Below, piece after piece: positions 2 to 42,571 of a DNA stretch of 64,000 nt. Under the pieces are notes generated by a model, which did not search any database, was not told where the DNA came from, and saw only the letters and a program-made list of their open reading frames with translations. The stretch comes from a virus (Duplodnaviria; Caudoviricetes): IMG/VR virus record IMGVR_UViG_3300031673_000001; one strand, written 5' to 3'. Numbering within the stretch: position 1 is the stretch's first letter; each line of letters begins with the position of its first letter. The translations under genes were made by a program, and so were the position numbers.

Positions 2-271
2 TAAGAGAGAAACGGTTTCATTAAAATGTCTTTCTACTGTTGGTTCCCCTCCTGTTACTAAAATTCCAGCATTTCTTTCAAATATTGTATTTTGAATATC
101 TTTTAATTTATGTGGAGCTTCAGCAGAAATTCTCATTTTGACAGATGTATCACACCAGGGACATTTAAGATTACACGTTTTAAATCTAAGTATAATCATT
201 GTTTTCCCTGAATCTGGTCCTTCACCTTGCCAACTTACAAAATTTTCAATTAATCTAACTTCACCTTCCAT
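2..271 (-). CDS. queE: 7-carboxy-7-deazaguanine synthase, radical SAM (5' part only; runs off the window edge)
   Basis: Not in the ORF track. Manual translation from ATG at 271: MEGEVRLIENFVSWQGEGPDSGKTMIILRFKTCNLKCPWCDT...LVTGGEPT. Shows the QueE SxQGEG, CxxxCxxC and TGGEP motifs; SD GAAGGAG upstream. Confidence 0.85.
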   Translation of the reverse strand, partial: MEGEVRLIENFVSWQGEGPDSGKTMIILRFKTCNLKCPWCDTSVKMRISAEAPHKLKDIQNTIFERNAGILVTGGEPTVERHFNETVSLL

Positions 272-305
272 ATTATATTCTCCTTCATGTTTATTTGTTC
301 TAAAT

Positions 306-3300
306 TTAAAATAAAATAACCTCATTTTTCTTTTCTTCTATTGCTTTGAATAATGGTTTTAAGAATAATGCATGTCTATCTTCAAATGTAAATTTTAATG
401 TTGACTGAACATCTGGAATAAAATAATGTGGTAATTTTTCTTCTTCATCTGGAATTGCTATTACTTCCAATTTTTTACCTCCAGATATAAATTTATGATA
501 CTTTTCTAAAACATCTTTTGGCGCTTTATCAATATCTATTCCTTTCACCCAGTATAAATAACCCTTTGCACCTGTGCGATGAATATCATACATTATACTA
601 TTCCATGCCTGCATACTTCTTACTCCCTGTGGAACCATTTTATAATCCTCTAATTTTTTACCCCATGATACAGGTCTACCAATTTTCTTATCCCCATTTC
701 TTATCATTTCTACAAAATCTCTTTTGCTTCTATTAATAAAATCCATAATTTTAGGAGGTGACATCTTTTCAGATTTTGACTTTAATAAAAGTTCAGATAA
801 CTCTATTAAAAATTCTTTTGATTTACTTGGATAATCAGATCTTTTAATTTCAACTCCCATAAAATTAGTTTTATCAACTTCCTTCCCTTCATTATTTACA
901 ACATGAATTGCATATCGTTTTTTAGCAAGAAATAATCCTCTTGAAATAATTAACTCATTTTTTAATTTCAATCTGTTATACTCTAAATTAACATTATATC
1001 TCTTTACAACTTCAGCAATTTTATCATTATTTAAAAAATCTTCTATTTTATCACACCATTTACGAATATTATCAATCGTTTTCTCTTCCACAAAATTTTC
1101 AAACTTACAAAAAATTGAATCTGTATCTCCAGTTATAATGAAATCGTTTGATCTGTCAGGTAATGTATATAACTCTGGTTCTGCCTTTGGATCTGCAAAC
1201 ATTTCTTCTTTTGTTAAAGTCTTTGGTTTTATATACTCTATTCCTGTTGCCATACTTCTCATTAAAGCATCGCCTTCAATAATTGAAGTTTTCAATGCTT
1301 CTTGACCAGTCAATGTGATTGCTGATGCTAGTGATAGATCATAAAATCTAAATGACTTGTTTGCAACAACCCCATATAAAGTATTTGCTAAAACCTTATA
1401 AACAAGTTGTCTTGTATAAAAGAATTTTTCTGCATTCTTATCTTTCTTTTCAATAGCATCAAACATCTGACTTTTATATGTATCACGAGATGACATTAAC
1501 ATCTCGACTACTTCTCCAAACACAGAAAACTTTTTCTTATGCGAGTTAAAAAAGCATCCATTAACTGTATAAACTAACTCTTTTTCTTTTATCAATTTCA
1601 ATAACCCATTTTTATCAATTTCTACAAGTTCTTTCTTATATAGAGGATCAACAACTACACTTATTTTATCTGGCAACTTTTCTGGATTATATGCAATATC
1701 ATATCCAAGATGCGGATTGGTTGTTTTCATTACAAAACTATTAATACCAATATTATAAGTAATCATTAAACTTGGATACAGAGACTTAAAATCAAAATCT
1801 GTTATCCAACTATAAAGTCCAGGTATTGGTTCATAGACATAAGCTCCAGGATAACTTTCTTTTGAAATGTGTGGATCAGAATTTTTAGAAGCTATTCCCT
1901 TACTTCTTAAATATGAAACCATCAATGAATCAATCTGCCCCATAGATGTGACAGAATCAAAACTTGTATTACAAATAATTCTCAATTCATTTAACAAATT
2001 AATATGACCTAATTTATCATCTAATTCTTTTAACAATTCTGTATCTCGAATATTATACTTAATCGTCATATTTAACTTCTGCCAATACATCTCATTGAAG
2101 GACAACGGCAATTGAATTTTTGTACGCCCCAGCTCACTCTCTGCAATAAATCCAAGTTTATAATTTTCCATTTTTGTAAATGTAAATGTTCTATATAAAA
2201 AATCTTGATCAATAGCAACACATCCAGGAATTAAACAAATCCATCTTGCACCATCAACAAAAAATTCCCCAAATTTTGTCATTAAAGTATCAGGTATTTT
2301 TAAATTTCTAATTCTATTAAAAATGTATTGCATATCAAAACTAATTAAATTCCATCCAGAAATAAAATCAGGATCAGTATCTCTAAAATCTTTCATAAAT
2401 GTACGCAACATCTTATTTTCATCTTTTATATCAAAAATCTTATAAACAACACCATCAACTTTTTCTATTGGTTCAGTTTTATTATCAAGAACATAAGTGG
2501 TTGTAACACCATTATAAATTGATGTAAACATATTTATTGAAAACTCTGCTTCTATTGGACTTGGAAAGATCTTTTCTTTTCCAGTATCAATTTCAATATC
2601 AAAAAACATAACATTAGATTCTACCTTTGGAGCATCCCCTTTGTTAAAATGATAATAATCCATAGCATGTTTAGTTGTTATTCTAATATCCCCTTCATAC
2701 GTTATATCTGGATCTAATTGATTTCTATCTCTATATGATAAAGAAATTTGTTTAAGATCTTCATAAGGAATAATCTTTCTTGCTTCAACTCCATCTTTTA
2801 TCTGATAACAAATATATTCATCACTTTCTGTATGATAAATTTTTTTATTATTTCTATCTCTAAAAATATAAAGAACCTCTTGCTTTTTACTAATAAATTG
2901 AACATCAATGAGTCTGTAATCGTCTGTATAAAACTTCTCTGGAATCTTATATCTGTATATGCCTTCTCCAATTTTCTTCTCATTAACTTTAAATGATACG
3001 TCTGAAACAACGCCATTTAACAAATCTGAAATTTTTAACATATCTTCTTCAAATTTTGGTTCCCATACCTTTAAATTTCTATTAGCAAAAGAAGGATGGA
3101 TTGTTAAAAAAACTTTAAATCCTTCCCATTCAAACGTTTTACCATGAAGATTAGTTATACCCGATTTAGCAATGCCAAATGCACTCATAGGAGTTGCACC
3201 CATCAAAACAATCAACTTTGGTTTACATTGTCTAATAATTTCCATACAATTCATTTTACATCTTTCAATAACATCTGGTTCTGGATTGCCAGTTGTTTTA

Positions 3301-3581
3301 TCTGGATTTATTGTCTGACATAAAACTGTATTTGTTAGAAGATATTTTACTTTATTTAATTCATATTTTGCAAAATATTTTCTAAACATTCTGCCTGACT
3401 TACCAACCAACGGTGCTGGTTCTGGTTTTTTGGCAACCTCATTCTTACCAGGATTCTCTGCTACAAATACAATTTCAACCTGTGTAAGATCAACTTTTGA
3501 ATTTGTTTCTAGAATACAAGAAGGAGCATCTAATAATTGACAAGTTGAGCAATCAGCAAAAGAATCTTTAATTGAAATCAT
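306..3581 (-). CDS. Family B DNA polymerase with N-terminal family-4 uracil-DNA glycosylase domain
   Basis: UDG4: CxxC, FVAENPG, LVGKSG, LTNTVLC, LMGA, TIHPS. PolB: ExoI FDIEID, ExoII GWNLISFD, ExoIII YNIRD, motif A DFDFKSLYPS, motif B KVLANTLYG, motif C GDTDS, and AKKRYA. Confidence 0.95.
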   Translation of the reverse strand: MISIKDSFADCSTCQLLDAPSCILETNSKVDLTQVEIVFVAENPGKNEVAKKPEPAPLVGKSGRMFRKYFAKYELNKVKYLLTNTVLCQTINPDKTTGNPEPDVIERCKMNCMEIIRQCKPKLIVLMGATPMSAFGIAKSGITNLHGKTFEWEGFKVFLTIHPSFANRNLKVWEPKFEEDMLKISDLLNGVVSDVSFKVNEKKIGEGIYRYKIPEKFYTDDYRLIDVQFISKKQEVLYIFRDRNNKKIYHTESDEYICYQIKDGVEARKIIPYEDLKQISLSYRDRNQLDPDITYEGDIRITTKHAMDYYHFNKGDAPKVESNVMFFDIEIDTGKEKIFPSPIEAEFSINMFTSIYNGVTTTYVLDNKTEPIEKVDGVVYKIFDIKDENKMLRTFMKDFRDTDPDFISGWNLISFDMQYIFNRIRNLKIPDTLMTKFGEFFVDGARWICLIPGCVAIDQDFLYRTFTFTKMENYKLGFIAESELGRTKIQLPLSFNEMYWQKLNMTIKYNIRDTELLKELDDKLGHINLLNELRIICNTSFDSVTSMGQIDSLMVSYLRSKGIASKNSDPHISKESYPGAYVYEPIPGLYSWITDFDFKSLYPSLMITYNIGINSFVMKTTNPHLGYDIAYNPEKLPDKISVVVDPLYKKELVEIDKNGLLKLIKEKELVYTVNGCFFNSHKKKFSVFGEVVEMLMSSRDTYKSQMFDAIEKKDKNAEKFFYTRQLVYKVLANTLYGVVANKSFRFYDLSLASAITLTGQEALKTSIIEGDALMRSMATGIEYIKPKTLTKEEMFADPKAEPELYTLPDRSNDFIITGDTDSIFCKFENFVEEKTIDNIRKWCDKIEDFLNNDKIAEVVKRYNVNLEYNRLKLKNELIISRGLFLAKKRYAIHVVNNEGKEVDKTNFMGVEIKRSDYPSKSKEFLIELSELLLKSKSEKMSPPKIMDFINRSKRDFVEMIRNGDKKIGRPVSWGKKLEDYKMVPQGVRSMQAWNSIMYDIHRTGAKGYLYWVKGIDIDKAPKDVLEKYHKFISGGKKLEVIAIPDEEEKLPHYFIPDVQSTLKFTFEDRHALFLKPLFKAIEEKKNEVILF

Positions 3582-3600
3582 TTAAATCCTCCATTTCATC

Positions 3601-3616
3601 ATTTTATTTTTGTTAC
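3601..3616 (-). promoter_or_regulatory. GTAACAAA-W-ATAAAAT motif upstream of the PolB SD (motif B)
   Basis: Minus strand reads GTAACAAAAATAAAATGATGAAATGGAGG-ATG; near-identical copies at 7459 and 36287. Confidence 0.5.
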
Positions 3617-3653
3617 GCAAACAAAAATTATTTTCCCATTTAAACAAAAGTAT

Positions 3654-3674
3654 CTATATATATTAATAAGTGAA
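3654..3674 (+). promoter_or_regulatory. Conserved 21-bp motif A, putative phage promoter
   Basis: CTATATATATTAATAAGTGAA; one of five copies, each at a divergent junction. Confidence 0.65.
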
Positions 3675-3799
3675 TATTGAATTTGGTTTATTTTTTTTTA
3701 AATTAACTTTCAACAAAAGGAGGTCAATGTGGATAAAAAACTAAATAACTGACTATGGCGGAAACAAAAATTAACAAGAGTATCGAAATGATATAGGAG

Positions 3800-4702
3800 A
3801 TGTGGATGACCAAAATAGTACAGCAAGTTAGCTCCGGGAACAATTCTGAAATTGACCCAAATTCTATAAAATATTATAAGCAGTTAGATCGAATTAAAAA
3901 ATTGGCTCTTGATACCAATGTACCAGAAGATTTTCATATTAAATGGTTGCAAGCTAAAACAATAATTGGAGTTCAAGATAACCTCATTGAAGATACTGTA
4001 CATATTTTAAAATCCTTTCTAGTAAAATATGTTGATGAGGAGGAACAACAAAAATTAATTGATTTAAAAAATGCAAGAAATTTATTAATTGAAACAAACC
4101 TTCTAACCCAAATTCATACCACAGGACAATTTGAAAAATGGAAAAAACCATTTTCAAATACTTGTCAAAAATGTAAAGGTGCAGGTGAACTTCTACTTTT
4201 CAATCGTATTACAAAAGATGTAACTTGTAATAAATGTAAACATGGAATAGTCTGGTTACCTTGCCCAAAATGTGATGGAACTGGTAGAGTTATCGTTAGA
4301 TATAAAAAAGGTGGAGGAACAGATTCAATATGTGATAAATGTTTAGAATCAACTAAAGAGTATATAAAAACTGAAGAATATGGGACTCTTCTCAAACTAA
4401 ATGAAAAAAATCCAGAATCTCATCCCCTTAATATTAATAAAATAAAAGTATCTTGTAGAACATGCAAGGGAACAACAATTGCAAAAATTTTAGTTTTAGA
4501 TTATTCTTTAAAATCTACTACTCCTTGTGATTCATGTGATTCATTAGGTTATATAATTAAAACCCAAACCCCCAAGAAAAAACAAAAAGAACCAATTCCA
4601 GATAATCCAGTCTTAAATCAAGAGCTAGCACTAAAAATTAACCTCCTATTAGACAGTCAAAAAGATCTCAATTCCACAGACGAAACCAACCCTACAACAT
4701 AA
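3800..4702 (+). CDS. DnaJ-type CxxCxGxG zinc-finger protein without a J domain
   Basis: CQKCKGAG, CNKCKHG, CPKCDGTG, CDKC, CRTCKGT, CDSCDSLG; no HPD motif seen. Confidence 0.7.
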   Translation: MWMTKIVQQVSSGNNSEIDPNSIKYYKQLDRIKKLALDTNVPEDFHIKWLQAKTIIGVQDNLIEDTVHILKSFLVKYVDEEEQQKLIDLKNARNLLIETNLLTQIHTTGQFEKWKKPFSNTCQKCKGAGELLLFNRITKDVTCNKCKHGIVWLPCPKCDGTGRVIVRYKKGGGTDSICDKCLESTKEYIKTEEYGTLLKLNEKNPESHPLNINKIKVSCRTCKGTTIAKILVLDYSLKSTTPCDSCDSLGYIIKTQTPKKKQKEPIPDNPVLNQELALKINLLLDSQKDLNSTDETNPTT

Positions 4703-4711
4703 CATTTCCAA

Positions 4712-4760
4712 ATAGCTGAAAACTTTTCTACACTTCCATGATAGAGAAGTTTTCAGCTAT
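4712..4760. terminator. 19-bp inverted repeat at a convergent junction
   Basis: ATAGCTGAAAACTTTTCTA (4712-4730) / TAGAGAAGTTTTCAGCTAT (4742-4760), with one G-U pair. Confidence 0.6.
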
Positions 4761-5264
4761 AAAATCTTTCAATGATTTTTTAACTACTATTTTTTTTGTA
4801 GATTTTATTTTTTGCTTTTTAATATTCTCAAGTCCTAAAGAATTATAAAAAGTATCTCTTTTATCAGACTTATTTATTATATCACACAGAAAGTCCACTT
4901 CAAAAGATTTTAACTGTGGATATCTTTTTTCAATAACATTATAAAGTTTATCATTATACTTTCTTTTATAATAAGTTGTATCATATTTACCAACTCTAAA
5001 CTCCAATACACATTTCTTAATAAAATATAAAAGCTCTTCCCTTGGAATTGAATAAATATTTATATTATTAAAGTATTGATCTAAATATTTATTTAATGAA
5101 AGATTTCTTAAAAATACACTGATAACATATCTATTTGTTATTGGACTATTATACTTTAATATATTTGGAACAATAACTTTTCCATCTTCAGTCGTTCTTG
5201 GTGCTGGAATTTTACTATTTATATTTCCATCAAATAACCAATTGAAATACGTTTTAAATGGCAT
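4728..5264 (-). CDS. Hypothetical protein (size and context loosely fit a clamp-loader small subunit)
   Basis: 178-aa ORF in the replication block; the functional guess is weak. Confidence 0.55.
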   Translation of the reverse strand: MPFKTYFNWLFDGNINSKIPAPRTTEDGKVIVPNILKYNSPITNRYVISVFLRNLSLNKYLDQYFNNINIYSIPREELLYFIKKCVLEFRVGKYDTTYYKRKYNDKLYNVIEKRYPQLKSFEVDFLCDIINKSDKRDTFYNSLGLENIKKQKIKSTKKIVVKKSLKDFIAENFSIMEV

Positions 5265-5275
5265 TATTTCTCCTT

Positions 5276-5797
5276 TTAGAAAAGAATAATATGTTCCGCT
5301 CTATTCTTGTAAGTTCTCTCTTTAGCTTCAAAGTAATTATGTTCTGTATTAAGACATAATAACAAATTCCATTCATTATCATCCCAATAATTTCCATTCC
5401 AATGATGTATATGCCAAATAAACTCTTTTCCATACAATAACTTGCCACTTGGACCATAAACTGCCTTAACATTTCCGAATAGATCTTTATTCGGTATAAC
5501 AGGAAATTTATAATTTAATTCTGGACGAGCTTGAAAATAATACAGTGTATGCTTTCCCATTGATGGTAAATTGATCAATCCATATTTACTAAACACCTTT
5601 GAACTAGGATAAACCCTTATCCTTCTTTCATTTATTTTACTATCATAAATACTGCTAAAACAAAAAGGACAATCTATACAAACAGTATTTTTAAGATTTC
5701 TATCAACAACATTACACATCTGACAATCACCTTTTAATTCTGAATCAATGCCTGAATAATCAACTGGTATATTATTAGAAAAATCAATATTTGCCAT
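5276..5797 (-). CDS. Zn-ribbon plus HNH-like endonuclease
   Basis: CQMC/CIDCPFC, plus C-terminal HIHHWNGNYWDDNEWNLLLCLNTEH resembling the HNH signature. Confidence 0.55.
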   Translation of the reverse strand: MANIDFSNNIPVDYSGIDSELKGDCQMCNVVDRNLKNTVCIDCPFCFSSIYDSKINERRIRVYPSSKVFSKYGLINLPSMGKHTLYYFQARPELNYKFPVIPNKDLFGNVKAVYGPSGKLLYGKEFIWHIHHWNGNYWDDNEWNLLLCLNTEHNYFEAKERTYKNRAEHIILF

Positions 5798-5812: not shown

Positions 5813-6751
5813 CTACATCATTCTATGTATTATATTCTCGTAAAACATCTTCATTTCCCCTTCACATATAAGAGATGGAACTCTTAATCTACCTCTATCA
5901 ACTGCTTCAATTTTATCAATAAGGTCTTCTTTATCATTATAAATGTATTGTCTTGGAAGAATCTCTGGATAAGCACATCTATTAGGAGCTAGTGGAATAC
6001 AATTGTTCATAACAGCATCCACGATTTGATAACCAAATGTATCCTCATGCGCTGATATTAAAAGAATCTTACTCATACTCAAAAATTTATAATAATTTTC
6101 CCAAGTATTTTTTTCTTTATCTCGAGTTCTTCTAACAATGTCAATACCCTTCTCCAATTCTGCATCAACTTTCTGTCTTGTTGGTCTTGATGCTGAAGCA
6201 ATACCAATCGTTTTTTCAGAAACTAAATTTGATATATCTTTGAAAGGAGGAAAAGGTAATCTAACAACCACTGTATTTGCCCATTTTAACTTTTTCTGAT
6301 GATAATTTGAACCAATGAAAATTTCATCAAACATTCTTGAATGCGCTGTCTCAACTAAAAATTTACTATCACTCACACTTTCAAAATAATCAAATTTATT
6401 AATACTTGTTGCATGACAATAAGCAAACGATTTCTTTGGTTTCTTATGATATAGAACATTACAGAAGAAACCTGGAAAACTTATATCTGCGACAAATAAA
6501 ATATCATCAACTTTTAAATCCATTGCCATATATTCTTTTATCTGTTCAGATTCAAATCTAATAGCTGCCTCGATTGGAGAAAACATTCCTTTTGTCTCAA
6601 CACCTTTAATGTTATATTTAGCTGCTTTTTCTCCCAGAATATAAACTTCAAATCCTGCGTTTCTAAATTCTAGAGGAAACTTTGAGTACCACCATTCCTG
6701 ATATCTCATAGGAGTTGGATATTGAGGCACAAAAATAATTCTCTTATTCAT
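5813..6751 (-). CDS. GT-B (GT4-like) glycosyltransferase
   Basis: EDTFGYQIVDAVMNNCIPLAPNRCAYPEIL matches the ExFG...EA...P nucleotide-sugar-binding motif. Confidence 0.75.
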   Translation of the reverse strand: MNKRIIFVPQYPTPMRYQEWWYSKFPLEFRNAGFEVYILGEKAAKYNIKGVETKGMFSPIEAAIRFESEQIKEYMAMDLKVDDILFVADISFPGFFCNVLYHKKPKKSFAYCHATSINKFDYFESVSDSKFLVETAHSRMFDEIFIGSNYHQKKLKWANTVVVRLPFPPFKDISNLVSEKTIGIASASRPTRQKVDAELEKGIDIVRRTRDKEKNTWENYYKFLSMSKILLISAHEDTFGYQIVDAVMNNCIPLAPNRCAYPEILPRQYIYNDKEDLIDKIEAVDRGRLRVPSLICEGEMKMFYENIIHRMM

Positions 6752-6969: not shown

Positions 6970-7440
6970 TTAAAACACCCATTTGCAATAACCTTCAAAG
7001 AGAACATACTTCTTCTCATATTTCCACATATCACGTTGACTTGCATAAACTTCATTTAATATATATTCCTTTCTAGTTGGTTCCAATGACTCGTGAATAT
7101 ATGGAGCATTCATTATAGTGCTATAAAAAGTTACATCAATTCCTGATCTAGCATATAATTCTCCAGTCATACCCAATTCTCTATGTTTTGGATGAGTCTC
7201 ATAGATTGGATCAGGAAAATAAAACTTATGATTTTTATTAATCATTGCCATAGGAATACTACTTTGAAACATTTGAACCTTAATTCCATCTATATATTCT
7301 TTTAACCTCATTGCTTCCTTTCTACGATTTGCATTTACATCTGGAGAATAAATAATTATAATAGTTTCCTCTCTTTTCAATACCTCATAACATCCAATAA
7401 TTTCATCATCAGGATGTGGTGCCACAATTACATGATTCAT
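6970..7440 (-). CDS. PIG-L/LmbE-family N-acetyl-sugar deacetylase
   Basis: IVAPHPDDEIIGC and ETHPKH motifs. Confidence 0.8.
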   Translation of the reverse strand: MNHVIVAPHPDDEIIGCYEVLKREETIIIIYSPDVNANRRKEAMRLKEYIDGIKVQMFQSSIPMAMINKNHKFYFPDPIYETHPKHRELGMTGELYARSGIDVTFYSTIMNAPYIHESLEPTRKEYILNEVYASQRDMWKYEKKYVLFEGYCKWVF

Positions 7441-20286: not shown

Positions 20287-20364
20287 GGTCCAGTAGCTCC
20301 AGTGGTTAGAGCAGGAAACTCTAAATTTCCGTTTGCGAGGGTTCGAATCCCTCCTGGACCACCA
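20287..20364 (+). tRNA. Amber suppressor tRNA (anticodon CUA)
   Basis: GGTCCAG/CTGGACC acceptor; GCTC/GAGC D stem; GGAAA-CT CTA AA-TTTCC; GAGGG-TTCGAAT-CCCTC; A73-CCA. Fully canonical fold. Confidence 0.92.
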
Positions 20365-33080: not shown

Positions 33081-33250
33081 TTTGTTATTACTTCTTGAAC
33101 TATTTCTTCACTTGATGCAGGTAAATAAAATACAGTATTCCCACCTTTTGAATTGCCACTATACCACCAAGCATCTGGAAATTTCATTAATATATATTGC
33201 TCTTCTTCATAGGATTCTGTAATTATTTCTATTACCAATTTATGTTTCAT
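33056..33250 (-). CDS. Hypothetical protein
   Basis: Coupled ORF. Confidence 0.55.
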   Translation of the reverse strand: MKHKLVIEIITESYEEEQYILMKFPDAWWYSGNSKGGNTVFYLPASSEEIVQEVITKWKEMKSK

Positions 33251-33737
33251 TATTATGTTCCTTTAATAGTCCATTGTATTCTTTATCTTTACCTTCCCTA
33301 ACCAACCTTCTCCACATTTCTATTCTACGATTTCTCTCCTCTTCATCCATCAAATCTAAAGTATATGGAATTCTTTCATCTTGTCCAATACCATTTCTTT
33401 CATACTCCATAAGAGCAAAACATCCCCACACAACCATCGCTAAGTGATGGCAATTACTTTCTTCGTCTAATTTCTCACCACGAATCCATTTCCATAGATG
33501 TCTCAAAAGTGGACCAATAACATCCTTTCTCCATTTTAATCCCTTCCACCAATTATAATTTTCATCATCGTATTTGGTTGTAGCATATGTATAGACCTTC
33601 GCTAATTCATGCAATGGCGAAGCAGGGATCAAATCATGGCGAGTTTTACCTTCACTGAACCTTGCACCTGTATCACATAATAACTCTTGCTCTTCCTCGA
33701 CATTTTTAATATACTCTTTAATTTTATTATCTTTCAC
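33240..33737 (-). CDS. dATP/dGTP diphosphohydrolase domain protein (DUF5664)
   Basis: GARFSEGKTRHDLIP...KY...NW.KG....RHL..W..GE..D.ES..HHLA. Confidence 0.85.
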   Translation of the reverse strand: MKDNKIKEYIKNVEEEQELLCDTGARFSEGKTRHDLIPASPLHELAKVYTYATTKYDDENYNWWKGLKWRKDVIGPLLRHLWKWIRGEKLDEESNCHHLAMVVWGCFALMEYERNGIGQDERIPYTLDLMDEEERNRRIEMWRRLVREGKDKEYNGLLKEHNNET

Positions 33738-33755
33738 TATTCTAATTCCTTTTTT

Positions 33756-34025
33756 TTACATACCAACTCTTTTATATGTCCATCCTTTTTCCAAATAAAT
33801 TAGATTAGGAACACTTATACTTTCACAAAGCATATCTTTAACAACCATATATTTACTTTCACAAAGTGCTTCTTTAATATCAGAATAAGCTTTTCTCGTA
33901 AACTCCATAGTCGTCCCATATACTACCCTATTGTGAATATCAATAATTTCTTTCTTATCACATATAGTGGAACAAGCTGGCATAACAAAACAATTTTTAC
34001 AGGGATCATCTCTAACCTTTTTCAT
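33756..34025 (-). CDS. PCxxC-family small protein
   Basis: DPCKNCFVMPACSTICDK. Confidence 0.6.
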   Translation of the reverse strand: MKKVRDDPCKNCFVMPACSTICDKKEIIDIHNRVVYGTTMEFTRKAYSDIKEALCESKYMVVKDMLCESISVPNLIYLEKGWTYKRVGM

Positions 34026-34423
34026 ACTATTTCAATTCTCCAATCATCTATATGTGATTTGACATATTTTCTCAATGTATCTTCTGTTCCGCCTGTCTTT
34101 CTTTTTAGAACTTTTTCTACTCCCTCTTGATGTCTCATAACACAAGCAATTATTAAATCTGAATTTTTAGCTATATCACTATTTCTTACAAATCCAGCAC
34201 CTTTTCCAAATTTTTTCCAATTAGCATAAAATATAATAATTGGAATGCCATGATCTTTAGCGATCATTTCAGCAAATCTATCTCCACCTTTTGAACATCC
34301 ACCAGAACAAATAAAATCTCCTTCTTCATAAATACTTAAAAACTTTTGTTCAACAAGCTTATAAGAAAATTGATCATCCCTTCCTCTAGTCCCAACTATT
34401 CCTATTACTCTTTTTATTTTCAT
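34022..34423 (-). CDS. SLOG-superfamily (YspA/DUF2493-like) protein
   Basis: IGIVGTRG; SGGCSKGGDRFAE; GKGAGFVRNSDI; GGTEDT. Confidence 0.8.
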   Translation of the reverse strand: MKIKRVIGIVGTRGRDDQFSYKLVEQKFLSIYEEGDFICSGGCSKGGDRFAEMIAKDHGIPIIIFYANWKKFGKGAGFVRNSDIAKNSDLIIACVMRHQEGVEKVLKRKTGGTEDTLRKYVKSHIDDWRIEIV

Positions 34424-34425
34424 TT

Positions 34426-34791
34426 CTATTCCTTAAACTTACCTTCAACTCCTCTTCTTTGTCTATCTTGTGTTCTAGAATCTAACCAGTGTAAAGCTTC
34501 TTCTAATTTTGTCAAAGCTAAAGCATTTTCACGACAAGGAAAATTACCACTCTGAAATCCACGTAATCTATCAATAACAACTGCAATTAAATCTTCATTG
34601 AAGCAACCATTGGCCACTGTCTCTTCAACTGGTCCTTTTTGAAATTTAATCCTTGTGACCATTTGCCTACCTTCTTTTCTAATAATGTCATACTCATGAC
34701 AAGCTCCTCCCATACCAGGTTCATCAAAAGCATAAATAGTGGTAAATCTTTCTGATCCAATTTCTACTTTTCTCATTTTATTTCTCCTCAA
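34426..34791 (-). CDS. tad1: Thoeris anti-defence 1 (Tad1/Acb2-family) nucleotide-signal sponge
   Basis: GGACHEY, IKFQKGP, EDLIAVVIDRL..FQSG.F.CRENALALTKLEEALHWL..RT.DR..RGVEG; closely follows the Tad1 sequence as recalled. Confidence 0.88.
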   Translation of the reverse strand: MRRNKMRKVEIGSERFTTIYAFDEPGMGGACHEYDIIRKEGRQMVTRIKFQKGPVEETVANGCFNEDLIAVVIDRLRGFQSGNFPCRENALALTKLEEALHWLDSRTQDRQRRGVEGKFKE

Positions 34792-35357
34792 TATTCTTCA
34801 TTTTCATTAATATTTAAATGATTATAAACCCTATATTTTATTCCTGATTCTTTAAGCAAATATTGAGATGAGTAATCATAGTAACTTATCTTCGTAACTA
34901 TGATCTCATCTATTCCAGCATTTATAATTTCCACCATACATTGAGAACAAGGAATGCCACAATTCATATACAACTTTGCACCATTGGTAGCAATTCCATG
35001 TCTTGCAGCATTAATCAATACATTTCGTTCCGCGTGTCCTGCTAAACACCATTCAAGACCTTCACCTGATTTAAATCCCATCTCGGGAATATGTCTTGGA
35101 CATTTTCCTTCTAGATTTTCTTCATAAAATTCTTTAGTAACAAACTTAAAATTTGCCGCCTCTTGCATCTTCACATCATAATTCCATCTTTCATCACAAG
35201 TTCTTATTCCCCTTGGAGGTCCATTATATCCCTGACATATAATTGTTTTATCTCTAACTAATATAGCTCCAATTTGTCTAGATAGACATTGACTCTTTTT
35301 TGCCACAGTTCTACACATCTCATGATACCAAGGATCCCATTCCATCCCTTTTCTCAT
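34788..35357 (-). CDS. dCMP deaminase
   Basis: CLSRQIGA, GYNGPPRG, HAERN, PCSQC. Confidence 0.92.
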   Translation of the reverse strand: MRKGMEWDPWYHEMCRTVAKKSQCLSRQIGAILVRDKTIICQGYNGPPRGIRTCDERWNYDVKMQEAANFKFVTKEFYEENLEGKCPRHIPEMGFKSGEGLEWCLAGHAERNVLINAARHGIATNGAKLYMNCGIPCSQCMVEIINAGIDEIIVTKISYYDYSSQYLLKESGIKYRVYNHLNINENEEY

Positions 35358-35695
35358 CTATCATCTCCTTCTCCCTTTATTTTATTTCTTTCTTTCCTAT
35401 CTAATAATTTTTTCAAATTCTCTTCTGCAACTTCATCAAAATCTATTCCAAGAGTATCCATAAGTCTAGCAAGATACCACATAATATCTCCAGCTTCTTT
35501 GATAATCTCATCCATCCTTTTAGGAGTCATTTGACCATAATCATCTCTAAAATGTTTCTTTACCTTTTCAATAAGTTCTCCAGTTTCACCTCCAATTCCC
35601 AAAACATAATACAACCATGCTGGACTAATTCCATGCTCAGGTCCAGTTCCTCTATCCGTAATTCTAGTACTCATCTGATATTCTCTTAATTCCAT
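35354..35695 (-). CDS. MazG-like NTP pyrophosphohydrolase
   Basis: LGIGGETGELIEKVKK..RD; EAGDIMWY; N..KL.DR..R..IKG.GD.R. Confidence 0.9.
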   Translation of the reverse strand: MELREYQMSTRITDRGTGPEHGISPAWLYYVLGIGGETGELIEKVKKHFRDDYGQMTPKRMDEIIKEAGDIMWYLARLMDTLGIDFDEVAEENLKKLLDRKERNKIKGEGDDR

Positions 35696-36265
35696 TTATA
35701 AATCTCCATATCCACTAAAGATTTCACTTTTATCAATCTTCTTTTTTCTTAAAATTAAATTTACAATCCTCTTTGACATTCCGCTCAATGGAGCTTCTAA
35801 CCTTATTCGTTTTGATCCATTAACTTTGAGGACCTTATTTACACGACCCAACCATTCTTGTTTACAATCTGCAAATTGATTTAAATAATCATCCCAATCT
35901 GCTCCTAACCAAATAGTCTCTATTCCCTTACTTTCTGCTATAGATGCTGCAATTGATACAAACATCAAGTTACGACTAGGAACATGCATCTCATTGACTC
36001 CTTCATATGTTCCCTTAACACCATCCCCTGTTAAACCGCTATTGATATTAAGTCCATTAATCTTTACTGTATCCCAAGGAATTTGCTTCTTTGCTAAATA
36101 CTCACATGCTTTATCAAGTTCCTCAATATGAAGTTGTCCATATTCAATCAAAACACAATGCGGTTTCATATCTAAACCAAGTGCCAACTCCAACATCAAT
36201 ACGCTATCCGCACCACCACTAAATAAAATTACTACATCATCATCTCTCTTATTCCTCTTTCCCAT
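35696..36265 (-). CDS. queC: QueC-like PP-loop ATPase lacking the C-terminal Zn-binding segment
   Basis: LFSGGADS, YGQ.H..EL, VPSRN..F.SIAA..AE, D(C)..EW, APL; no CxxCxxC; start at MGKR (SD AAAGGAG). Confidence 0.8.
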   Translation of the reverse strand: MGKRNKRDDDVVILFSGGADSVLMLELALGLDMKPHCVLIEYGQLHIEELDKACEYLAKKQIPWDTVKINGLNINSGLTGDGVKGTYEGVNEMHVPSRNLMFVSIAASIAESKGIETIWLGADWDDYLNQFADCKQEWLGRVNKVLKVNGSKRIRLEAPLSGMSKRIVNLILRKKKIDKSEIFSGYGDL

Positions 36266-36286
36266 TTTTAAATCTCCTTTCAATCA

Positions 36287-39759: not shown

Positions 39760-39999
39760 ATGGATCGACGTAGTTATGAAGACACTAATTATCCAGAGAC
39801 ACCAGAAATAGTTGGCAGAGGAAGTGATATATCATTTACCTCATCAACACAAGGTGGCATGTGGTGTCCTCTTTGCTTCTTCTTAGAGAGAAAATATCAC
39901 TGGATAGAAAATGTATCAGAAAATAAATTTGCACTATGTAACAAACAAAACAAAAAATTTCAAGTGACTAGAGAACATATTAATAGAAAGCATTTATAA
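39760..39999 (+). CDS. Hypothetical protein
   Basis: CPLC motif; single gene downstream of motif A. Confidence 0.6.
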   Translation: MDRRSYEDTNYPETPEIVGRGSDISFTSSTQGGMWCPLCFFLERKYHWIENVSENKFALCNKQNKKFQVTREHINRKHL

Positions 40000-40872
40000 T
40001 AAACTCCGTGCTCCTGCCAACATATCTCTCGTAACACTCAAATCTCTACATGTCCAGGCATCCCATGCAAAATTACGAACATAGTAATAACTTACATAAC
40101 CATATCCTTTTTGTCCCCACTTATCTGACCAACTATTTTTAAATTTGATGAGTTTTTTATTATCATCATAACCTACAGCACAGACAGCATGACCGCCATA
40201 ACAAAATTGTGGATACTTCGGATCTTCAACTATACCATCATCTCCAACAGACAACATCTCTTCATACACTCCCATTCCAAGAACAACGGGACCATCTTTT
40301 AAAGCATCCCTTAGTTCTTCTAATGATGTAACCCTCCAGTATGAATCAATCAATGCCCACCTGGCAACAAGATGCGCCCACTTCTCTGGAGAACCCTTGA
40401 CTACATCATCATATGGCCAAGCTTTCTCAGTTGGAGATCCAATTCTATGTAAAACTTTCATAGCACATCTAATTGATGTTCCTTCGATGCCTGGCCACGG
40501 ATCAATCTTTTTACTCATCCAATAAATCCAAGCTTCTGAAAGATCATAATACTTATCACTTCTATGATCAAATTTTCCAGATTCAACCTCTGCTCGATGT
40601 TCCTTTTGCTCTTGCCATTCTTTTAAAGCAGCAACTGAAAAACCAACGCAACTCCCCAATCTCATTTGATCTTTAACAGGAGACATAGAATCTGTCCAAT
40701 CAACTGAATTTGGAGATAATAATCTAGCATCAGCTATACTAGCATATGGAGCTCTTGGTTCATATAGATAATCTCTTTCATCATAACTATCTTTTCTATA
40801 AGTAAAACTGTATTGTTTTTCTGTTGGTCTTTTCATTCCTGGCATTTTTATATCCTCGCTTAATATCTCCAA
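39994..40872 (-). CDS. Papain-like C1A cysteine protease
   Basis: VDWT..MSPVKDQ..LGSCVGF; GHAV.AVGYD; KNSW...WG..GYG. Confidence 0.93.
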   Translation of the reverse strand: MEILSEDIKMPGMKRPTEKQYSFTYRKDSYDERDYLYEPRAPYASIADARLLSPNSVDWTDSMSPVKDQMRLGSCVGFSVAALKEWQEQKEHRAEVESGKFDHRSDKYYDLSEAWIYWMSKKIDPWPGIEGTSIRCAMKVLHRIGSPTEKAWPYDDVVKGSPEKWAHLVARWALIDSYWRVTSLEELRDALKDGPVVLGMGVYEEMLSVGDDGIVEDPKYPQFCYGGHAVCAVGYDDNKKLIKFKNSWSDKWGQKGYGYVSYYYVRNFAWDAWTCRDLSVTRDMLAGARSLL

Positions 40873-41873
40873 TCTGGAATCTGTTCTAATCTAGTATCAA
40901 ATATATTTGCTTTTTTATCAGATCTGATTCTCTTAAAAGATGGATGTGAAAAGGTAATGGATTGTTTATATCCAATTTTTTCATATTTTTTATTTTTAAA
41001 TCTATATGTTGGAGTATCAGTAAATCTAAATCTAAAAAATTTCATCTCAATAACCAATAACGGTTTGATAAAAACTTCTCCACCTTCTCTATATAATTCA
41101 TTATCAATTATAAATTTATACATTGAAGATCTACTCTGATCTGTAAAACCGGTTCCTACCTTTGAACTCGATCTAATCAAATCATTCTTATCAATAAAAC
41201 CTGTTAATAAATATGAAACTTGACTCTTTTCCCAAGCAGGTAATTTTTCTCTACCTGCACCTATGACTAATAAATCAACAGTATTGGAAAATTTAATCTT
41301 ATAATTTTTACCTTTTAGATCTCGAGCTACTATGCCATCAAATCCCTCTTTTGAACTTGCTTCGCTGTATAATTCCCTAAATTTTTCTATTCCTCCAATA
41401 GCTATTTTTGGATTTGAAATATGTTTAGATTTAAATCTATTTTTAATCAATGGAAGTATCTGTCTGAAATTCAAACTTTTATTATCTATAGAATAAACAT
41501 CCAATGGATAATGATAAATTAAATCTTTATTCTCCGGTTTGTGATATGTTTTAACAATACTCATGGTTTCATTGAATGGAAGAATTTCTTTATTTTTCTT
41601 TGCAACCAGTTCCCCTGGAATTTTAGCTTCCTTAATCCCAAGATCTTGTAGAATTTTCATATACTCATCAACCAAAGGAATCTCATTAATTATTCCACCC
41701 CAAGATGTTTGAAAGAATCCACTATTACCATCATAGATAAACATCCCCAACATTCCATCAACCTTTTCCATATATATTACATTCGATTCTGAAGGGAAGT
41801 CAGTAACAAAATCATCATATGAATATTGTATCAACTTCGTTTTCTTTTTCCATTCATACGCATAATTTATCAT
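40860..41873 (-). CDS. ATP-dependent DNA ligase (LigD/LigC-like ligase domain)
   Basis: EKVDG (motif I), GELVA, DGIVAR, YKIK, DLLVIG, VGTGF, HPSFKRIRSDK. Confidence 0.88.
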   Translation of the reverse strand: MINYAYEWKKKTKLIQYSYDDFVTDFPSESNVIYMEKVDGMLGMFIYDGNSGFFQTSWGGIINEIPLVDEYMKILQDLGIKEAKIPGELVAKKNKEILPFNETMSIVKTYHKPENKDLIYHYPLDVYSIDNKSLNFRQILPLIKNRFKSKHISNPKIAIGGIEKFRELYSEASSKEGFDGIVARDLKGKNYKIKFSNTVDLLVIGAGREKLPAWEKSQVSYLLTGFIDKNDLIRSSSKVGTGFTDQSRSSMYKFIIDNELYREGGEVFIKPLLVIEMKFFRFRFTDTPTYRFKNKKYEKIGYKQSITFSHPSFKRIRSDKKANIFDTRLEQIPDWRY

Positions 41874-42571
41874 TATGATATCCTTGCTTTATTTTGATTA
41901 AATTTAAACAGGTCATTATAAGATACCTCCATGCATTTCAATCCAACAAGAGATAATGAATGTAATGTTATATAATTACCTCGAAATTTGTTAGGAGCTA
42001 AATCTATATTTGGAACACCTGCTTTTCGTTTTCCAGATATAGTATATATTTTAGCTAATTCAGATTGTTGTAAAAATTTTTGAAGTAGAAAACGAATTGA
42101 ATCAATTTTCATCTTTCTATTAAAATAGCATATTATATGAAATGAGGTCTTCCCTGTAAATCTTATTTGAGCTTTTCTGACAATTGGCATCTTATCCATT
42201 GCAAATTCATATACATCATTAGTAGCTTTCTGCGCCCATTTGAATCCATCATAATCGGTAACATCAATATCAATAATACCAAAATCTTCATAATTTCCCA
42301 TTGATGAATATATAGTTACTGTTCTACCAGTAATAACTTCATCATAATTTTGTGGAGTTAATCTTATCCAATCTTGACCTTTAGCATGTCTTCGCAATAC
42401 TGTCTTATTCAAATCTACCATAAGTCCAAACATAAGATCCCTAGATTTTGTTTCATTTAAAATTTCACGTTTGACTTTTTGATAATACGTCCAGATATCT
42501 ATCTCTCTCAGACCTTTAGGATAATATGAATTTTTTAAAACTATAGTTTCTGGATTTTTTGGATATGCCAT
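41873..42571 (-). CDS. LigD-type primase-polymerase (AEP) domain protein
   Basis: YP.G...DIW.YY; IIDID (DxD); FTGKTSFHI; IDL..N; LHSL. Confidence 0.75.
   Translation of the reverse strand: MAYPKNPETIVLKNSYYPKGLREIDIWTYYQKVKREILNETKSRDLMFGLMVDLNKTVLRRHAKGQDWIRLTPQNYDEVITGRTVTIYSSMGNYEDFGIIDIDVTDYDGFKWAQKATNDVYEFAMDKMPIVRKAQIRFTGKTSFHIICYFNRKMKIDSIRFLLQKFLQQSELAKIYTISGKRKAGVPNIDLAPNKFRGNYITLHSLSLVGLKCMEVSYNDLFKFNQNKARIS

Follow-up and report, generated by a model that had tools for sequence, protein, structure and literature searches.

Uracil-DNA glycosylases (UDGs) are known to be coupled to viral replicases, covalently with phage family A polymerases (PolA) and non-covalently with the family B polymerases (PolB) of poxviruses, herpesviruses and African swine fever virus (ASFV). 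A natural covalent UDG-PolB is the missing fourth combination. In the SP15-like UDG-PolA, cryo-electron microscopy has revealed that the 5' template strand is guided to the UDG, which excises deoxyuridine (dU), but not a 5-substituted dT analogue, ahead of the polymerase (PMC13697223). The abasic site is bypassed mainly with dA, and the phage PolX and ligase complete base-excision repair (BER) (PMC13697223). The authors of that 2026 study place the mpox E4 UDG at the same position on a B-family polymerase, and they suggest, but do not demonstrate, read-ahead excision with a B-family replicase (PMC13697223). The present analysis concerns a gene in a 64,000-nucleotide stretch of viral DNA (IMG/VR record IMGVR_UViG_3300031673_000001; Caudoviricetes), referred to as the window, in which a family-4-type Fe-S UDG lies in cis with a T4-like family B replicase.

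The gene is a single unbroken open reading frame (ORF) of 1091 codons on the minus strand (306-3581), as given by the ORF list and its translation. The domains identified by Pfam along the protein are, in order, a UDG domain (PF03167, aa 34-172; E 8.5e-16, 58.8 bits against a cut-off of 24.3), DNA_pol_B_exo1 (aa 313-476; E 2.7e-17) and DNA_pol_B (aa 552-964; E 1.5e-37), with the two polymerase domains scoring 129.9 and 63.4 bits against cut-offs of 23. The full-length AlphaFold2 model has a mean predicted local distance difference test score (pLDDT) of 89.5 and a predicted template-modelling score (pTM) of 0.74, and full-length homologs share 53-83% identity. The fusion gene is real, with ordinary parts in an unusual combination. 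An initial annotation of the sequence had described an N-terminal family 4 UDG followed by a PolB with an intact exonuclease, an observation that Pfam, motifs and fold bear out in every particular. The main parts of the gene are as follows.

306..3581, minus strand: the whole UDG-PolB fusion gene, 1091 aa plus a stop codon at 306-308
3018..3581, minus strand: family-4-type Fe-S UDG domain, aa 1-188, from Pfam, sequence match, AlphaFold2 and Foldseek
2979..3017, minus strand: linker, aa 189-201, NGVVSDVSFKVNE, 13 residues, a variable Lys-rich sequence of conserved length
2022..2978, minus strand: PolB N-terminal and 3'-5' exonuclease domains, aa 202 to ~520, from the Pfam exo1 match and the fold, with Exo I DIE at 2592-2600
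309..1928, minus strand: palm, fingers and thumb, aa 552-1091, from Pfam DNA_pol_B, invariant columns and Foldseek

Over its first 200 residues, the protein resembles free-standing UDGs of family 4, including Thermus thermophilus UDGa (1ui0; E 4e-14), Thermotoga TM0511 and the Sulfolobus tokodaii enzyme, and the domain also matches the UDG of the phiLo family A polymerase (9qhs_A) with an E of 1.1e-7 by sequence and 1e-8 by Foldseek. When modelled alone in AlphaFold2, the UDG domain reaches a pLDDT of 93 and a pTM of 0.90. The top structural matches are 1ui0/1ui1, at template-modelling (TM) scores of 0.77-0.81, 4zbx/4zby and 1l9g/1vk2; UdgX ranks next, then phiLo PolA, and family 5 (2d3y), TDG and SMUG1 lie far lower. 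The N-terminus therefore matches family 4 in sequence, by the comparison with T. thermophilus UDGa, and in predicted fold. The scores against the curated NCBIfam type-4 models are below the cut-offs (NF040953, 61.7 bits against 250; TIGR00758, 54.3 against 125.3), and by these measures the domain is a divergent family-4 relative, not an equivalog.

The putative ligands of the Fe-S cluster are the following, each aligned to a Cys of T. thermophilus UDGa.

3540..3551, minus strand: C11-S-T-C14, the first two putative Fe-S ligands
3318-3320, minus strand: C88, putative third ligand
3258-3260, minus strand: C108, putative fourth ligand

All 122 close members have C88 and C108, and the 119 that cover the columns of C11 and C14 all have both of these. 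Among 72 distant representatives, the Fe-S cysteines are kept in 65-71, the remainder being gaps. The four cysteines of a 4Fe-4S cluster are thus present in the alignment, and binding of the cluster is predicted.

The chemistry of family 4 provides the reference for the active site. In T. thermophilus UDGa, the residues E41, G42, E47, F54, N80 and H155 form the uracil pocket; N80 hydrogen-bonds N3/O4 of uracil, and N89 positions the water (PMC5387724). In that enzyme, H155S lowers k2 more than 1000-fold, substitutions of G42 cost ~90-fold and F54A costs ~17-fold (PMC5387724). Family-4 UDGs are active on single- and double-stranded DNA (PMC5387724), and their motif A is GE(A/G)PG (PMC10359453). 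The corresponding elements of the fused domain are listed below.

3447..3461, minus strand: UDG motif A, AENPG, aa 41-45, with E42 equivalent to T. thermophilus E41 and N43 in place of G42
3408..3410, minus strand: L58, aligned at the position of the uracil-stacking Phe (F54 of T. thermophilus UDGa)
3258..3332, minus strand: motif-3 region running from N84 through the loop CQTINPDKTTGNP to C108, from a loop comparison of 72 representatives
3090..3098, minus strand: UDG motif B, H162-P-S, with H162 as the catalytic His (H155 in T. thermophilus UDGa) and R168 following

The pocket equivalents here are E42, N43, E48, L58, N84 and H162, four of the six being identical and N43 and L58 the exceptions; N99 is probably the water-positioning Asn, the equivalent of N89. 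Within the 122 close members, E42, N43, E48 and L58 are invariant and A41, N84 and H162 are each found in 121. In the 72 representatives, with identities down to ~26%, E42, E48, N84 and H162 together with the Fe-S cysteines are kept in 64-71. Motif B, HPS(S/A)(L/V)(L/V)R in family 4, reads H162-P-S-F-A-N-R168; 68 of the 72 representatives have its His and 59 have R168, which no close member lacks. On the evidence of these alignments, the catalytic and pocket residues E42, E48, N84 and H162 are intact and under strong purifying selection, and their conservation across such divergence argues for retained chemistry, beyond mere fold. The Fe-S cysteine pattern, AENPG and HPS named in the initial annotation are all present (C11-x2-C14, C88 and C108; aa 41-45; aa 162-164).

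In its active site, the domain departs from family 4 at a few positions. Motif A keeps the E, P and G of GE(A/G)PG, while the first Gly is replaced by Ala and the third residue, Ala or Gly, by Asn. The stacking position is Leu in 55 and Phe in 15 of the 72 representatives, with Phe found only in distant canonical forms, and the motif-3 loop exceeds that of canonical family 4 by 4 residues. The replacement of the usual G by A41, which had been singled out earlier, is correct, yet it is the least important deviation; N43, L58 and the longer motif-3 loop are the substantive ones. The most distant fused members are canonical, with GEAPG, P-F-x-G and a segment of 22 residues between the TN motif and the fourth Cys, the same as T. 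thermophilus UDGa has. In an intermediate group, the motifs are AEAPA/S and P-L-x-G and the segment spans 25-31 residues; the clade of the window combines AENPG and P-L-x-G with a segment of 26 residues (CQT-L/I-NPDGTTGNP). Read along this series, the active site has drifted stepwise across the fused family, from GEAPG through AEAPA to AENPG.

The polymerase part is equally complete, and its motifs and C-terminal end are placed as follows.

1773-1793, minus strand: polymerase motif A
1371-1397, minus strand: polymerase motif B
1119-1127, minus strand: polymerase motif C, DTD
309..332, minus strand: extreme C-terminal peptide ...KKNEVILF, a candidate sliding-clamp-binding tail, from a family-wide pattern

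The exonuclease motifs are Exo I DIE328-330, Exo II NLISFD411-416 (D416) and Exo III YNIRD509-513 (Y509/D513), and the polymerase motifs are A DFDFKSLYPS595-604 (D597), B KVLANTLYG729-737, C DTD819-821 and KKRY887-890. In an alignment of 45 sequences, every PolB catalytic motif shows little or no variation; the polymerase is intact in its exonuclease and polymerase motifs alike. The polymerase part falls in phage DNA-polymerase families in PHROGs (phrog_262, 2.3e-119), and its closest solved relatives are RB69 and T4 gp43 (best E 4e-34), to which Foldseek aligns ~950-1000 columns at E ~1e-42 and target-normalised TM scores of 0.70-0.78. By motif content and homology, the protein is a proofreading replicative family B polymerase of the T4/RB69 gp43 type, in an uncultured AT-rich jumbo phage. 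A hydrophobic C-terminal tail, x-(V/I/L)-L-T-(F/I/V/M)-COOH, is conserved family-wide, and it may be comparable to the clamp-binding tail of T4/RB69 gp43.

The junction between the two halves is short and regular. The UDG ends in a helix (aa 170-188), which the linker joins to the first strand of the PolB N-terminal domain, and in the full-length AlphaFold2 model the pLDDT of the linker falls below 50 at aa 194-199. R168 and Y211 are 42-46 residues apart in 122 of 122 members, making the length of the linker nearly fixed. The N-terminal domain of gp43-type polymerases borders the groove where the single-stranded template enters. By analogy, a short, fixed tether to this domain would keep the glycosylase at the template entry.

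The function that we consider probable, from conserved residues and from the analogous viral systems, is the replication-coupled excision of template dU by a tethered, predicted-active glycosylase. The short linker of fixed length would set the Fe-S UDG at the template entry of the polymerase, where dU would be flipped out and excised before it reaches the polymerase active site. The dU itself could come from dUTP misincorporation or cytosine deamination, and the abasic site would then be bypassed, or repaired by phage or host BER enzymes; the window contains an ATP-dependent ligase-like gene. Coupled uracil scanning at the fork, one of the roles put forward in the initial annotation, is the mechanism with the most support, the analogues being the SP15-like UDG-PolA (PMC13697223) and poxvirus E4/D4. 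Circumstantial support is drawn from nucleotide genes and from L003, one of three related loci (L001, L002 and L003) from which the gene context beyond the window edge is inferred. A dCMP deaminase, MazG and the ligase-like protein in the window, together with a ThyA-like protein in the relatives, suggest a high dUMP flux in a genome of ~30% GC. The sole UDG found in L003 (244.5 kb) is the fused one, and a trimeric dUTPase, which belongs to a fast-diverging family, was not detected in this record, estimated to be 78% complete.

Several considerations weigh against replication-coupled excision. RB69-type polymerases bypass abasic sites poorly, which makes excision from the template strand risky. 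Several lineages of the clade have eroded or lost the UDG, so the domain is not indispensable. The clade of the window also departs from canonical family 4 at N43, L58 and the longer motif-3 loop, and the costs of G42 and F54 substitutions in T. thermophilus UDGa imply that the activity here may be weak or re-tuned. A uracil-containing genome of the PBS2 kind was considered and rejected, as an active fused UDG would be self-destructive in it and the relatives carry a ThyA-like gene.

The position of the tether also bears on an alternative, in which an active UDG is brought to the fork without reading ahead and removes dU misincorporated in the nascent strand from duplex DNA, beside the polymerase or behind it, by ordinary replication-associated BER. 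Such a role would agree with the action of family-4 UDGs on both single- and double-stranded DNA (PMC5387724), with the conserved catalytic residues and with the ligase-like gene in the window. It is nevertheless unlikely, since the linker of ~13 residues has a fixed length and is attached to the PolB N-terminal domain, which in RB69 lies on the template-entry side, far from the thumb where the duplex exits. The UDG-PolA and mpox precedents both put the UDG on the incoming template (PMC13697223).

The fusion is not peculiar to the window. The protein has 391 homologs in a large protein collection, and the best 120 of these 391 all carry PF03167, PF03104 and PF00136, with identities of 61-83% and lengths of 1053-1106 aa, except for one of 1529 aa with an intein. 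A HMMER scan of 1.84 billion representatives clustered at 50% identity gave 12,151 matches; among the best 150 representatives, the UDG lies N-terminal to the polymerase in 75, at identities down to ~26%. An assembly chimera was rejected because the architecture recurs in over 100 metagenomic clusters that are independent of one another. Close relatives of the UDG that stand alone are limited to 36 short matches, most of which are on short contigs and look like fragments of fusions. UDG-PolB members reside on contigs of 220-306 kb, and the metagenome-assembled genome (MAG) bins of hits (loci L010-L014) are labelled Thermoplasmatales, Heimdallarchaeota, Woesearchaeota, Mycoplasmatota and Thermoproteota. 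These taxa are mutually inconsistent for proteins so similar, and the bins are probably mis-binned contigs of AT-rich jumbo phages.

No match covering 80% of UDG-PolB occurs in 50,697 GenBank phage records, and a megablast of the gene against GenBank phages gave no match. The GenBank polymerases that match the UDG domain are annotated as family A or simply as 'DNA polymerase' (SPO1-like Bacillus, Pseudomonas and Rhizobium phages), with one DnaE; none of them is annotated as family B, and the other matches are stand-alone UDGs, hypothetical proteins or unannotated. No paper describing a covalent UDG-PolB was found; a 2020 survey of B-family polymerases makes no mention of UDG, and the 2026 UDG-PolA study treats B-family enzymes only as partners of UDGs in trans (PMC13697223). 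The initial annotation had allowed that such fusions might already be widespread and characterised. Widespread they are, as the 75 of the best 150 representatives attest, but no characterisation was found, and the fusion is apparently undescribed although widespread in uncultured jumbo phages.

The evolutionary history of the family was examined in trees of the exonuclease-palm core, from which the UDG columns were left out and in which the root was not inferred. All polymerases that bear a UDG group to one side of a single branch, which is well supported (FastTree local support 99; 99 by the SH-like approximate likelihood ratio test (SH-aLRT) of IQ-TREE). The other side holds the UDG-less gp43 of Cronobacter S13, Synechococcus S-T4 and Pelagibacter HTVC008M, and metagenomic relatives. 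The simplest reading of this tree is one early fusion with later losses. Some of the rows without a UDG on the UDG side are obvious fragments. The full-length P0143, P0146, P0166, P0190, P0200, P0206 and P0214 retain an eroded UDG remnant, and P0182, P0187, P0199, P0161 and P0171 have no N-terminal extension at all. Many members of the intermediate clade have only 814-860 aa (P0154, P0155, P0162, P0164, P0165 and similar); according to Pfam, P0155 and P0162 stop beyond polymerase motif B, as though the polymerase gene were split. Intein insertions occur in others (P0070, P0202), and the distant fusions of 1200-1400 aa (P0150, P0167, P0183, P0233, P0202 and similar) have an extra 170-200 aa before the UDG with no Pfam match.

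The eroded remnants in several lineages of the PolB clade are also what would be expected if the UDG were mainly structural, serving as a processivity factor, strand-displacement wedge or template guide with dispensable catalysis. Precedents for this are the vaccinia D4 protein, described as a processivity-factor subunit of the D4-A20-E9 holoenzyme (PMC4889955; PMC10253040), and the UDG domain of N4-like PolA, which is without catalytic residues (PMC10201439). A gp45 C-domain clamp, moreover, was not found in the L003 record, where only a sub-threshold DNA_PPF match occurs, inside a 1019-aa frame; this negative is weak, as it comes from one record of the incompleteness stated above and as Pfam clamp models miss divergent clamps. 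A mainly structural role seems decidedly unlikely, however, as near-universal retention over a very long divergence is seen for the Fe-S cysteines, the catalytic His and the two Asn and two Glu, a conservation that structure alone would not require. The conserved hydrophobic C-terminal tail, for its part, suggests a separate clamp partner.

The surroundings of the gene are considered next, and the first neighbour is placed as follows.

2..325, minus strand: QueE-like radical-SAM gene with a 20-nt overlap between its start and the polB stop; it runs off the window edge

The fragment in the window itself gives a weak radical-SAM match; its 74%-identical ortholog in L001 and L002 matches the 'QueE-like' phrog_2076 at 2.3e-37 and the NCBIfam QueE models at a best E of 2e-16, below the cut-offs. 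The synteny of polB and QueE is kept in L001, L002 and L003. A role for this radical-SAM neighbour in thymidine hypermodification was rejected, as the QueE-specific PHROG and NCBIfam matches and the QueC of the window favour a deazaguanine pathway. TGT/DpdA was not found in L003, a weak negative given the completeness of that record and the fast divergence of these families. Two further neighbours are a 312-aa protein (5813-6751, minus strand), placed by language-model features in viral GT4-type glycosyltransferase clusters (Atlas score 0.99) and without a Pfam, PHROG or NCBIfam match, and a 156-aa protein (6970-7440, minus strand) with a weak PIG-L match only (E 0.0036). The GT4-like and PIG-L-like genes are syntenic with polB in L001 and L003.

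An operon (33240-36283, minus strand) encodes QueC (1e-24), MazG (1.4e-10) and dCMP deaminase (2.3e-16), along with an Acb2/Tad1 hairpin-domain protein (3e-6), a SLOG-family protein (1.1e-7) and a dATP/dGTP diphosphohydrolase N-domain (PF18909, 3.2e-24). Its gene content suggests 7-deazaguanine DNA modification, nucleotide-pool editing and an anti-CBASS/Thoeris sponge. In the relatives, polB and QueE are followed (L002 3415-4894; L001 10066-11545) by a homolog of ribosomal protein S21 (8.5e-15), a Cpn10/GroES homolog (9.2e-9) and the divergent ThyA-like protein. The best match of the latter is TIGR03283 (archaeal-type), at 1.1e-28 and below the cut-off, and the catalytic Cys and the dUMP-type Asn are kept.

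These genes and the stepwise drift of the active site invite a reading in which the specificity has been re-tuned, or in which the domain is a slow-turnover sensor that stalls the polymerase, in a phage with chemically modified DNA. The bases to be told apart might be unmodified U/T and a hypermodified pyrimidine, or else 5-substituted uracils would be the target. The series of motif A, stacking position and loop length, GEAPG/PF/22 to AEAPA/PL/25-31 to AENPG/PL/26, would fit such a change. UdgX is a precedent, as there the same motif-A position went from A/G to Q, the same loop was remodelled in step by co-evolution with motif A, and turnover was dampened (PMC10359453). The motif-1 position of N43 is held by the water-activating Asp D64 in UNG and by Asn N18 in MUG (PMC4333384), and active UDG-PolA fusions are found in T-hypermodified phages (PMC13697223). 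The GT4-like, weak PIG-L-like, QueE-like and, in relatives, ThyA-like neighbours, with QueC and the dATP/dGTP diphosphohydrolase of the window, lend themselves to the same view. We hold this reading to be very unlikely. E48 (equivalent to T. thermophilus E47 and E. coli UNG Y66; PMC5387724) and N84, which contacts N3/O4, are conserved and favour plain uracil, and the SP15-like enzymes excise dU and spare the 5-substituted dT analogue (PMC13697223). The modification genes point not to thymine but to 7-deazaguanine, which a pyrimidine pocket would not read, and the Cys and Asn retained in the ThyA-like protein are those of an ordinary enzyme acting on dUMP.

A more specific proposal is that AENPG, L58 and the long loop constitute a second remodelling of family 4, independent of UdgX, that produced a modification-state discriminator or a slow-turnover sensor gating the replicase. 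This is quite improbable; if true, the replisome itself would proofread DNA modification in jumbo phages with modified DNA. UdgX-type cross-linking was rejected, as the loop CQTINPDKTTGNP has no His or Arg and motif A is AENPG, against an R-loop KRRIH with the nucleophilic His109 and GEQPG in UdgX, an offshoot of family 4; with the NCBIfam UdgX model the domain reaches 51 bits, where the cut-off is 190. A deazaguanine reader, also floated in the initial annotation, is unlikely, since the pocket residues that read N3/O4 and O2 of a pyrimidine are conserved, with the pyrimidine-specific N84, E48 and H162 in place. Replication-coupled excision of uracil remains the favoured function.

The remainder of the window and its relatives contain further genes. 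A papain-family cysteine protease (PF00112, 2.5e-18) adjoins the ATP-dependent DNA ligase-like protein at 39994-41873 (minus strand); in the latter, the C-terminal domain alone is detected (7.3e-7), and a 232-aa ORF beside it (41873-42571) has no Pfam match. Upstream of polB and divergent from it lies a 300-aa protein (3800-4702, plus strand) with DnaJ-type CXXCXGXG zinc-finger repeats (3e-8), and small zinc-finger ORFs like it recur in L002. The region 8142-30125 (plus strand) harbors 25 tRNA genes among small ORFs, including a tRNA with a CUA anticodon (20287-20364; Pyl according to ARAGORN) that would act as an amber suppressor. Unusually for a phage, L003 encodes a 936-aa protein (2707-5517, minus strand) that carries the shoulder domain of the Major Vault Protein (PF11978, 7.3e-20) and gives a weak match to a vault repeat. 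The 25 tRNAs, the phage-type replication and nucleotide genes, and the bacterial S21 and Cpn10 beside polB in the relatives make the window look like a bacterial phage.

The size and age of the UDG-PolB family offer a compact single-chain model for asking whether read-ahead uracil excision extends to a B-family replicase. The series from canonical to remodelled active sites, together with the eroded lineages, provides a natural experiment on whether catalysis or DNA handling is under selection. UDG-PolB also flags a clade of uncultured phages of 220-306 kb that appears repeatedly under inconsistent taxa in public MAG bins.

Compared with known systems, each half of the protein has a clear counterpart. 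The free-standing UDGa enzymes (T. thermophilus TTHA0718, Thermotoga TM0511 and S. tokodaii) share the fold (TM 0.78-0.81), the four Fe-S cysteines, the Glu of motif A, the E47 equivalent, the TN Asn and the HPSxxxR motif B. They differ in having GE(A/G)PG, a stacking Phe and a loop 4 residues shorter, and in not being fused to a polymerase, and the NCBIfam type-4 models score the domain here at 54-62 bits, against cut-offs of 125-250. T4 and RB69 gp43 give the best sequence and fold matches to the polymerase, with all motifs and the hydrophobic C-terminal tail in common, but the identity is only ~19-27% and the present protein has ~200 extra N-terminal residues (UDG and linker). The gp43 of T4-like phages and cyanophages lies across the branch of 99% SH-aLRT support from the UDG-PolB clade; some T4-like phages have split forms of gp43.

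Among systems that handle uracil at the replicase, archaeal PolB performs the same task, sensing template uracil ahead of the polymerase through its N-terminal region (PMC7544198). Its device is a non-catalytic pocket in its own N-terminal domain that stalls synthesis, whereas here a complete glycosylase is appended. The background given in the initial annotation on this pocket and on SPO1-type PolA fusions agrees with the literature (PMC7544198, PMC10201439). In poxviruses (D4/E4 with A20/A22 and E9/F8), herpesviruses and ASFV, a UDG is physically coupled to a viral family B replicase. The poxvirus UDG, however, is a subunit of its own, which acts in trans by way of a bridging protein and belongs to the processivity factor, in viruses of eukaryotes. 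It is a family-1 enzyme without an Fe-S cluster; here, a family-4-type Fe-S UDG is attached in cis by a 13-aa linker, in a phage.

The SPO1-like and SP15-like UDG-PolA proteins (YerA41, phiLo, SP-15 and SPO1) likewise have an N-terminal UDG fused to a proofreading phage replicase (PMC13697223, PMC10201439). The catalytic motifs are conserved in both, and the phiLo domain belongs to family 4, its structure 9qhs_A matching the domain described here. The polymerase here is of family B and is without Insert 1, Insert 2 and the C-terminal domain, and a family B rather than a family A polymerase implies that the fusion arose independently of UDG-PolA. The active sites differ as well, as phiLo keeps GEAPG and PF, while AENPG, Leu for Phe and a longer motif-3 loop are found here. 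By analogy, UDG-PolB would work like the UDG-PolA group without being a member of it. The coupling of a UDG to a replicase as such is already known; a family-4 UDG in cis with a family B replicase is apparently new.

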